Origin: Euglena gracilis
Taxonomy: Eukaryota
DNA: 64,000 bases
Direction: 5' to 3'
Assembly: GCA_039621445.1 (NCBI GenBank)
Contig: CP154954.1
Span: 36,379,703 to 36,443,702 of the forward strand
The stretch's first letter is position 1; each line of letters opens with the position of its first letter. Both the position numbers and the translations under genes were made by a program. Below the pieces are notes generated by a model, which saw nothing but the letters and a program-made list of their open reading frames with translations, was not told the DNA's origin and made no database searches. This document shows, in pieces, positions 20,358-55,798 of this stretch.

Positions 20358-23300
20358 CTGGGTGGAACACAGGGCAGATGAGGGGCGGAAGCGTGGGACC
20401 AAAAGAAACACTCTCCTGGAACCAGCCACCATTTAAAAAAAAATCCAGCTCCTCCAAATGCAACAACTCTCATGAACAGCAAAACAGCAGAGGTAAAGCG
20501 GTTTGCAACTGAGAACCAGCAATTTGGATTATCCTTTCTTGCAGTTTTTTGCTATTGAGCTTCGGACACCTTTGAAACAAAATAGCTGCTCTTGAACCTT
20601 TTTTTTTTCCACAGAGATGTGACGTGGGGGGTGGGTGGGTGGGTGGGTAGCTGGTTGGTGGTCAGCCACCATACCTCTGTGGTGCATTATTTGGATATTT
20701 AAAATGAGGCACCCCATCCCCCCCCAAATCGCCTTATTTCTGTATTTGGGTGTGTTTTTGGCCGGAAATATCATCGACATGAAAGCAACTGTTTTTCTTG
20801 TTATTTATCCTTGTATGTGACATATTTGGACAACTTTCGATGTCCCAATTTGGAAATGTGCCAAGAAACTTTCATTGAAAGCAAATGAGAGAAAGCCTCT
20901 CCAACGCCAAAAAAAAATAGGACCATTTGCTAGATGCCCAAAGAAAAGTGGGGCAGGGTTCAGTTGCCAAAACAATCATTCATTCAGTCATGAACTTCTG
21001 CACTTCTGGGGGGATTTTCAAAAATGGCGATTAAAATTTCTCAAACTGAATGGTAATTAAAACTTTCTCAATGAAAAAAGCGCATACTCGGCACAGCGGG
21101 ACCAAATCATTCTTGGCGATGCATGCGGTTCCGCGGTCATATTTCTGGAACACCCGCACGATGTTCTCCAGCATCTCCCGCGTCAGGCAAACATTCTCCA
21201 ATTCCTGTGAACCCACAGTTGGAATAAGAGCAAAATGAGCCACAAACAGGGAAACTGAGATGGTCAAATTCCACATAATAAAAAAAGTTTTTTTTTTGTT
21301 GTGGGAAGGCATTCAAAGAGGAACTTCGACCAAAACCATGCAAAAAAGTTCCGGTGCCTTCACCTGGTCAATCCCCCCCTAACCAAGCATTATTTTTTAA
21401 AGGCGCATTAAAAAAAACTTTAAAAACCTTAAAAAACCTTAAAAACATTTAAAAAACCTTAAAAAAAATCACCCCGGGGAAGTTTTTCTTCCCCGTGATG
21501 ACCTTAAAAAACCTTAAAAATTCTCCCTGGGAATTATTTTCTTGCACCAAACTAATAATGGCATGTCTGAAACCCCGCATAAAGCCAGTCAATGCAGAAG
21601 CGGTTGTGAACAAACAATATGCGAACTGGATTGTTTGCCAAGGTTTTTGGCATAGTTCGGTTGGTCTCGGTTGACCAAAAGCTGTGACACACGGCCAGAA
21701 TAAGAAAAACGTGCAACCACATCTTTCTTGATTTGAATTACTTGAGACATTCTTAGAGGAGTCAACCCAAATTGCTCTAAAATGCAATTGCAGCAAAAGT
21801 TGCATGAACAACAAAAAAATCCTGATTTGGGACAATTTACTACGCTGGAGCAGTTTCCCACACTTGCCACGGCATTTCAAGCAGCAAAACAGTGCGTTTT
21901 TTTAAAAAAAAAACATTTTTTGTTTCAAAAAAAAACAAGCAGTCAACCTTGGCAAGCACCTATGGTCAAGCCCCAAAGTTTCCCCATTTGAGGCCATTTT
22001 AGGCCATTTAAGGCCAACAGGCAAGCAAATGTCCTGAATAGGGTCAGAAATTTAAAATAATTGCAATGAAAAAAAATGGATGGTTTCGATTTCCGAGTTT
22101 CGAGGTGACCCACTCTGTATCACCATGCAACAAGGTTTTGAGCAACGTGTATGGCGGCACACTGCATGGGCACGCATTTGGTATTGCTCACATGAAAAAA
22201 TTGGATTATTTTGTCAGTGTTCATGAGGCTATCCGGTGTGGGTGCATGGGTCAGGGCGGTCCACCTTAGGCGGCAGATTTCGCACTTAAGGGTTTTTCCT
22301 TTGAAATGGACGCATTTGCGCAAACGCGCAAATTTTGCGAAACCCCTAGGACACTGTACCCTGACACCTGGAACATGATTTAAGAACTGTTACACCCCTC
22401 TATTGGAGGGGATTAACTCCCACAGTCCCATAAGCTTGGCGTGAAGTCCACCAGGGACGGTTTTTTTTTCCGGTTAACTGCCCCTTAAGGATTGCCCCTC
22501 CAGGGCAGTTTTGGACCCGAAATATTTTTTCCGGCGCCTTCGACGCTGGGTGTTTTTTTTGACCCATTTTGGGACCCATATGCAAGAACCCACAACTAAA
22601 ATCGCCTAAAATTCCTAAAATGCCTAAAATGGCAATAACTGTGTCTCATGGACCGCCCTGATCCCATGCTTCGCCCGAGGCTTCTTCCCTGGGCGTTCCG
22701 AAGCCACAGGAGTCTGAAGCCTTCGGGCCATCTTCGGGGTCTGAGATTTTACCTGAGGAAAAAAAAGCCTTAAAAAACCTTAAAATTTTTAAAAATTCGT
22801 CAAAAAACCTTAAAAAACCTTAAAAAACCGCCTTAAAAATTTTTTTGCGAAATCTCGCCTTAAAAAAAGTAATGCCTGCCCCCAACATACACACCAAAAA
22901 CCAGTTACCCCCCCCCTAGTCATATGACCGGGTTCCTGCAACCTGTGACCGGGGGGGGGGGTGGTCATAACACCCCCATAACCTGCAACCTATGACCGGG
23001 GGGTGGTCGTAAATGAGGGGGCGGTCATAGGTAAGGTGGTGTTAAGTTTTTCGCAACCTGCAACCTGTGACCAGGGGGGTGGTCATAACACCCCATGACC
23101 TGCAACCTGTGACTGGGGGGTGGTCGTAAATGAGGGGTGGTCGTACGACTAGGGGGGGGGGGGTAGTCGCTTTGAAAACGGGGGGGGGGGGAGTGCAGTG
23201 ACTAAGTCATAGGGATGCCAAAGATGACAAACTGCAGTCCTCAAAAAAATAAATGGGTGAGCAAATCATGAGTGGCATAATATGTCAGGGTTCTGACCGA

Positions 23301-55798: not shown

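Follow-up and report, generated by a model that had tools for sequence, protein, structure and literature searches.

Transposons with 8-bp target site duplications in the introns of a Euglena gracilis gene, and a candidate source of euglenid nonconventional introns

Background

A 64,000-nucleotide stretch of the Euglena gracilis genome (assembly GCA_039621445.1, contig CP154954.1, positions 36,379,703 to 36,443,702; referred to below as the window and numbered from its first letter) contains a gene for a protein with FHA and alpha-kinase domains, and six firm non-autonomous DNA transposons lie between 21384 and 54970, all of them in long conventional introns of this gene. They have inverted ends of the CAGG...CCTG type and 8-bp target site duplications (TSDs). 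Three other introns of the same gene are nonconventional, and carry 3 nt before and 5 nt after a terminal stem, two spacers whose sum is the length of one TSD. The geometry of the elements fits, without proving it, the published idea that such introns derive from transposons. Our main proposal, which we hold to be somewhat favored by the evidence, derives the nonconventional introns of euglenids from transposons of this type, that is, with CAG...CTG ends and an 8-bp TSD, that had inserted into exons.

The origin of these introns, and their majority share in some species, are questions that have been standing since the 1990s. Insertions resembling miniature inverted-repeat transposable elements, or MITEs, were proposed as their source in a study of tubulin genes, which described direct repeats at most junctions and according to which, as of 2014, no transposable elements were identified in euglenids (Milanowski et al. 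2014, PMC3935182). In 2016, a strain-specific and recently gained intron of E. agilis gapC was described with eight-nucleotide direct repeats, which its authors read as a product of break repair (PMC4770533). A 2024 review in Mobile DNA describes terminal inverted repeats (TIRs) with CAG at +4 to +6 and CTG at -8 to -6, TSD-like repeats at many junctions, and a MITE origin (PMC11282704). Nomura et al. (2025, PMC12501133) reported that 71.8% of E. agilis introns are nonconventional and that direct repeats are present at 84.4% of all introns. Their knock-in into E. gracilis GSL2 led to the code 5'-N3CDG-/-CH'GN5-6|R, where the donor spacer is strictly 3 nt and the acceptor spacer is 5 nt, with 6 tolerated; where nonconventional introns come from is still termed unclear in their discussion. 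MITE-like sources are suggested, and nothing beyond that, in a late-2025 diplonemid paper (PMC12621601).

The logic of the MITE-origin hypothesis (PMC3935182, PMC11282704), namely that inverted repeats at intron ends together with TSD-like junction repeats point to MITE insertion, is also ours. The accessible parts of those papers name no source element, TSD length or superfamily, whereas the window offers concrete families, a proven 8-bp TSD, and a spacer sum tied to it. More widely, in the accessible literature to late 2026 the MITE origin is still a hypothesis, and we found there no source family, TSD length or equation of 3 + 5 with the TSD; supplementary tables may hold repeat lengths. 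What appears to be new is the naming of concrete candidate families and the arithmetic of the TSD; the MITE origin and the TSD-like repeats are already in print.

Two proven insertions and four further elements

Two of the six elements are proven transposon insertions. A repeat of about 3.3 kb is present in two copies, 83-85% identical, at 23375-26942 (intron 14) and 38742-41500 (intron 8). The first copy contains an element at 24939-25984 (1046 bp), the second an element at 40024-40278 (255 bp), and each copy is an empty site for the other's element: a lone GTCCCACC at 24663-24670 lies in matching context with no element, and so does a lone GGCAGGGC at 40553-40560. As the 8-mer is unduplicated at these paralogous sites, both elements are true insertions that postdate the duplication of the repeat. 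The empty sites also set the length of the TSD, exactly 8 bp, and the precise termini, CAG and CTG. No paralogous empty site was found in the window for the elements at 21384, 31040, 36358 and 54633, nor for an ambiguous candidate at 42369. Both copies of the 3.3-kb repeat are rich in palindromic TTGCGCAAAT-type units, which recur at 495-900.

As a control for chance, TIR pairs matching at 10 or more of 12 positions and flanked by an exact 8-bp repeat were counted in the window and in 20 first-order Markov shuffles. The shuffles gave 2 qualifying pairs in total (0.1 per window), against 27 in the real window. Twenty-five of the latter are palindromic 8-mers in long inverted repeats or in TTGCGCAA-type satellite units, and the other two are the 24939 and 40024 elements; the 36358 element is missing from this count because its TSD was caught by a low-complexity filter.

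All six elements are inside long GT-AG introns (introns 2, 8, 9, 10 and 14); four have perfect TSDs, and in two the copies match at 7 of 8 positions. The 24939 element, a MITE in intron 14 (29005-21205), has ends CAGGCATTATT...AATAATGCCTG and the TSD GGCAGGGC at 24931-24938 and 25985-25992. An older member of its family occupies 21384-22878 (1495 bp) in the same intron: the two are 87-93% identical in four pieces, the ends of the older one are CAAGCATT...AATGCCTG (also given as CAAGCATTATT...AGTAATGCCTG), and its TSD copies, CCCCTAAC and CCCCCAAC, differ at one position. A MITE of 1491 bp at 31040-32530, in intron 10 (33720-30947) and 93 nt upstream of the acceptor, has ends CAGGCACCTATAG...CTATAGGTGCCTG, a perfect 13-bp TIR and a TSD matching at 7 of 8 (GTCGTATC/GTCGTAGC). 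Its terminal 60 nt or so (31040-31101 and 32461-32511) are about 88% identical to internal stretches of the 24939 element (25741-25804) and of the 21384 element (21953-22016), a resemblance that suggests either nesting or common ancestry of the two families.

Two shorter MITEs also have perfect TIRs: 19 bp (CAGGGTTCGATATAAGGAG) in the 398-bp element at 36358-36755, in intron 9 (37982-33821) with the perfect TSD CCCCACAC, and 16 bp (CAGGCTTCTTTTTAAG) in the 255-bp element at 40024, in intron 8 (44312-38046) with the perfect TSD GTCCCACC. The latter has a fold z-score of -5.18 and a 17-bp terminal stem, present in both the minimum free energy (MFE) and the centroid fold. The least certain of the six is a MITE-like element of 338 bp at 54633-54970, in intron 2 (55240-52555): it has ends CAGGCAATTGC...AAATTGTATG and a perfect TSD, CCCCGGAC, but its right end is degenerate (...TATG), its TIR matches at 10 of 14 positions, and the sequence around it is itself repetitive.

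An earlier note on this stretch, made from the sequence alone, had described the four elements with perfect TSDs (24939, 36358, 40024, 54633) exactly as we find them. Its count of at least seven MITEs is reduced to six firm ones, their CAG...CTG-type ends and 8-bp TSDs being retained. The seventh, at 42369-42794, has near-perfect 20-bp TIRs but is ambiguous in its boundaries and TSD length. One reading is of the CAG...CTG type, CAGGGGGGGG...CCCCCCCCCTG, and gives the 6-bp repeat CATCAA; in the other, AGG...CCT, the repeat is of 8 bp and agrees at 7 positions. A further candidate at 37739-38832 (8-bp TIR, TSD 7/8) was rejected because exon 9 (38045-37983) falls within it.

The 398-bp and 255-bp elements have in common a 23-nt central hairpin, AAAATTTTCGGCGC-NNN-GCGCCG, at 36578-36600 and 40144-40166. 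An exact-pattern scan of public metagenomes found this hairpin in at least 120 contigs (L001-L120). Among the matches listed, it is part of MITE-like elements that have G-run/C-run arms and terminate in, for example, ...CCGGCGCC(C/A)CTG; they are flanked by a perfect 8-bp TSD in L030, L037 and L080 and by one matching at 7 of 8 in L120. These listed contigs share only a core of about 27 nt with the window elements, and are therefore not further copies of the window families. Removal in silico of four metagenome elements, each with one TSD, opened no convincing open reading frame (ORF) across the junction: the resulting ORFs were 48-160 aa long and, in three of the four, had at most five residues on one side.

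The host gene

The host gene is a single 35.5-kb gene on the minus strand, extending from 55798 down to a TGA stop at 20249-20247, and the element-bearing span of the window is essentially this gene. It encodes FHA and alpha-kinase domains and a C-terminal EF-hand-like region. Three homologous proteins with FHA and alpha-kinase domains were reached from a short minus-strand match to an alpha-kinase motif. One of them, P0003, shares a cluster with a protein that bears the name of Eutreptiella gymnastica, which speaks for a euglenid origin; we read the window as a nuclear locus of a euglenid. The gene model was built from such homologues, by tblastn and spliced alignment, the closest being P0001 (532 aa, 76-100% identity per exon, with Pfam domains FHA PF00498 and Alpha_kinase PF02816). 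Spliced alignment gave 16 exons and 15 introns within the window: 11 introns are GT-AG, one is GC-AG (30845-30621), and three are nonconventional. The first coding exons (P0001 residues 1-48, about 48 codons) were not found in 55799-64000 of the window, and a protein search queried with P0001 returned neither a protein nearer to the host gene than P0001 nor an exact cDNA-derived protein. For introns 6 and 14, the top-scoring junctions of the script were non-GT-AG; GT-AG junctions were set by eye, since they reproduce DIRGMSD (6 of the 7 residues of DIKGMSD in P0002) and SLTDEELE (P0001), respectively.

Two of the conventional introns have 5-nt direct repeats at their junctions, CAGGC in the GC-AG intron and CAGGT in the GT-AG intron at 30530-29745. 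Junction repeats are therefore not restricted to nonconventional introns, as also reported for E. agilis in 2025 (PMC12501133).

Three nonconventional introns

For three of the 15 introns there is no GT/GC-AG junction option; the earlier note had seen two of them. All are on the minus strand. Intron 1 (55726-55349, 378 nt) reads ACC-CAAGATG...CATCTTG-CAAGC before an exon starting with A, intron 5 (45972-45846, 127 nt) reads GGC-CAGGCTTGG...CCAAGCCTG-CACAT before G, and intron 7 (45274-44414, 861 nt) reads GCC-CAGGACC...GGGCCCTG-TTATT before G. With the junctions taken from protein homology, the geometry that had been described for two introns holds in all three: N3-CAR-stem...stem-YTG-N5, then a purine. 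Indeed, the CAR/YTG pair coincides exactly with the junctions picked by protein similarity alone in every case, and we estimate the chance of such a motif pair at a given junction at about 0.001. Introns 5 and 7 strictly fit N3-CDG...CH'G-N5|R, with CAG...CTG, spacers of 3 and 5, and G as the next base. Intron 1 has the identical spacing and the purine, but CAA...TTG takes the place of CAG...CTG as a covarying variant.

These introns thus resemble the euglenid nonconventional introns already described (Milanowski et al. 2014, 2016; Nomura et al. 2025) in the lack of GT/GC-AG, in CAR at +4 to +6 and YTG at -8 to -6, in the terminal stem and in the purine that follows. They differ in that intron 1 is outside the strict CDG/CH'G wording of the noncanonical code, and in that they are known here from protein homology. 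The positions of CAG and CTG and the proposed transposon origin, both cited in the earlier note, are as printed (PMC3935182, PMC11282704, PMC12501133).

Terminal stems were found in both the MFE and the centroid folds of all three introns: 7 bp in intron 1, a perfect 9 bp in intron 5, and the pairs CAGG/CCUG and GCCC/GGGC in intron 7. The stability of the whole-intron folds is not above that of shuffled sequences (z = +0.08, +1.57 and +1.63).

Spacers and target site duplication

On the transcript, an element with TSD t1-t8 reads t6t7t8, then CAG...CTG, then t1-t5, followed by t6. When t6 is a purine, the element with one TSD copy therefore matches the published nonconventional code; moreover, excision leaves t1-t5 joined to t6-t8, so that the pre-insertion sequence is restored. 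The equation of 3 + 5 with one TSD, put forward in the earlier note, is arithmetically correct, and the E. agilis gapC intron with its 8-nt junction repeats agrees with it (PMC4770533). The same note had cautioned that only some TSDs give a junction of pyrimidine and purine. The published rule is less demanding: all that it requires here is that the downstream exon open with a purine (PMC12501133).

Four of the six elements (24939, 31040, 36358 and 40024) have the full code N3-CDG/CH'G-N5|R in the sense orientation of the gene. Each of the other two departs from it at one end in this orientation: the 21384 element ends (3') in TTG, and the 54633 element starts (5') with CAT.

Origin of the nonconventional introns

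How could these elements and introns be related? The long conventional introns of the FHA/alpha-kinase gene have collected at least six non-autonomous transposons, which duplicate exactly 8 bp when they insert. In our proposal, such an element landing in an exon would make up, with one TSD copy, the unit N3-CAG...CTG-N5, which the euglenid machinery could remove from the RNA; given a purine at position 6 of the TSD, the mRNA would then read as it did before the insertion. The elements of the window would be young relatives of the intron ancestors, which chanced to land in introns. In favor of the proposal are the two empty sites, the six TSDs set against 0.1 exact cases per shuffled window, the fit of all three introns and of four of the six elements to the code, the terminal stems, the spacers fixed by knock-in (PMC12501133) and the repeats of the gapC intron (PMC4770533).

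A bolder version, on which our opinion is evenly divided, is that the noncanonical splicing machinery of euglenids amounts to a means of excising a single type of transposon at the level of RNA: it would cut 3 nt ahead of the stem and 5 nt beyond it because these add up to the 8-bp TSD. The majority of the nonconventional introns of Euglena, which in E. agilis account for about 72% of all introns, would then be decayed copies, and the CAGG(C/G) families, two of them inserted after the 3.3-kb duplication, would belong to the still-active source population. If this were true, any insertion into an exon would, provided that position 6 of its TSD is a purine, be erased from the mRNA and leave no scar.

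The elements fall into several related families with CAGG(C/G)...(G/C)CCTG inverted ends. We label them hAT-like because of their TSD length and termini. With MITEs of the hAT superfamily they share the 8-bp TSD, short TIRs starting with CAG, and a non-coding body, of 255-1495 bp here. Maize Ds, a hAT element, is said to be spliced as a de novo intron, an observation of Giroux et al. in 1994.

Several observations weigh against descent of the introns from such elements, or against the hAT label. First, none of the three introns resembles an element family beyond the terminal bases, and the rest of the window contains nothing similar to them except a dinucleotide microsatellite. As for the intron ends, the 8-mers flanking intron 1, CATGCACC and CAAGCAAC, are identical at 6 of 8 positions (P = 0.004 for at least 6 of 8), but those of intron 7, AGTTTGCC and TTATTGTC, are marginal at 4 of 8, and those of intron 5 are at chance level with 2 of 8. 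In a register test with 13 shifts, the in-register alignment was the best for intron 1, tied for intron 7, and gave nothing for intron 5. Pooled over the three introns, 12 of the 24 positions are identical where chance would give 6 (P = 0.0072 by a naive binomial test). This excess speaks for descent, but the statistic comes from three introns only and ignores base composition and coding constraint. A clear TSD remnant is kept in only one of the three, intron 1. Furthermore, the intron junctions were set by homology to proteins of other organisms or paralogues, and not by RNA of this organism.

Second, as the earlier note had also remarked, none of the six elements is located in an exon. In addition, CAG...CTG ends are common among DNA transposons, so that the shared trinucleotide is by itself weak evidence. 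Third, the hAT signature is incomplete. hAT elements have a weak target preference, nTnnnnAn, and T2 and A7 do not occur together in any of the six TSDs, whichever strand is read. The TIRs of hAT elements start with the motif YARNG; CAGGG, in one of the six elements, fits this motif, and the others start with CAGGC (four) or CAAGC (one), the fifth base being C and not G in five of the six. Finally, no transposase domain was found among 30 window ORFs scanned against Pfam, so that no autonomous hAT partner, for which the earlier note had suggested a search, is seen among them; the sole matches were to RVT_1, in three ORFs.

Part of this evidence is what plain coincidence would predict. The elements would then be ordinary transposons with 8-bp TSDs, the 3- and 5-nt spacers would be set by the splicing enzyme for structural reasons that have nothing to do with a TSD, and nothing but common CAG...CTG termini would be shared. 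Insertions confined to introns are expected if they are neutral, the dissimilarity of introns and elements and the flanks of intron 5 would need no explanation, and the acceptor spacer tolerates 6 nt (PMC12501133), in which case the sum is no longer 8. On the other hand, coincidence must accommodate a spacer sum exactly equal to the TSD length, the in-register match of intron 1, the 8-nt repeat at a newly gained intron (PMC4770533), and the TSD-like repeats at many junctions (PMC11282704). We regard it as a doubtful explanation, though a serious one.

Another possibility, proposed in 2016, is that the introns arose from repair of double-strand breaks with filler DNA and duplication of staggered ends, the elements being bystanders. 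This is how the authors of the gapC study themselves read the 8-nt repeats (PMC4770533), and the three introns do look like unique sequence in the window. Break repair leaves unexplained, however, why the inserted DNA should have terminal inverted repeats starting with CAG, and why the duplication should be a constant 8 bp, which is a transposase signature, seen directly for elements in this genome; we find this origin improbable. The reverse direction, in which the free elements are former nonconventional introns turned mobile, for instance through excised circles copied back into DNA, can draw on the report of excised introns as full-length circles (PMC11282704), and a circle of N3, element and N5 would hold one complete 8-mer at its junction, but a fixed 8-bp duplication and perfect TIRs are typical of cut-and-paste transposases, and the same central hairpin and CTG ends recur in many unrelated metagenome contigs, three with perfect 8-bp TSDs among the matches listed, which makes this direction very hard to believe.

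Descent from exonic insertions invites comparison with introners. Those of Micromonas and Aureococcus, the subject of work by Huff et al. in 2016, are reportedly DNA transposons that are removed from the RNA together with part of the TSD. The idea shared with these and with the introners of Amoebophrya is that a non-autonomous transposon leaves the RNA with part of its TSD, so that an insertion in an exon is tolerated. Introners of the three organisms are spliceosomal, and form large near-identical families inside genes. Here, in contrast, the non-spliceosomal machinery of euglenids would do the removing, and we see no member of an element family among the three nonconventional introns of this one window. 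Likewise, none of the three has a related copy in the 64 kb, and the introner trait of many near-identical intron copies is absent from this very small sample of one gene. The Amoebophrya introners are described with TIRs and TSDs (PMC11282704). 'Introner system', the term used in the earlier note, is accordingly an overstatement for one window, and the general hypothesis behind it was already published.

What the window supplies is a set of candidate families with a proven 8-bp TSD and a simple quantitative prediction: the lengths of the two spacers should add up to that of the TSD. This makes the origin of the introns directly testable, both on published euglenid genomes, that of E. agilis for instance, and in the E. 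gracilis knock-in assay. Should it hold, transposons would have a second, non-spliceosomal route to the creation of introns at genome scale.

Other repeats in the window

The three RVT_1 ORFs, at 8003-9205 (+), 12879-13379 (-) and 14459-18631 (+), are retroelement remains downstream of the 3' end of the kinase gene. They match at 33.8 and 35.5 bits (above the cut-off of 29.6) and at 23.9 bits (below it), the third match being within an open frame of 1391 aa. Between them, 9249-12761 is a near-perfect large inverted repeat of about 3.5 kb, foldback-like, whose mirrored ORFs (9750-10955 on the plus strand and 11870-12850 on the minus strand) have no Pfam match. Rfam gave no match at the gathering score in the whole window. 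A candidate element of 502 bp at 3862-4363 has perfect TIRs of at least 20 bp (TGGCAAGTGTTAAGTTTAGT) and TA-repeat flanks, and a similar end, ATATGGCAAGACTAA, is present near 35590. The candidate is possibly a MITE of the TA-target (Tc1/mariner) type, and so of a class distinct from the elements with 8-bp TSDs.

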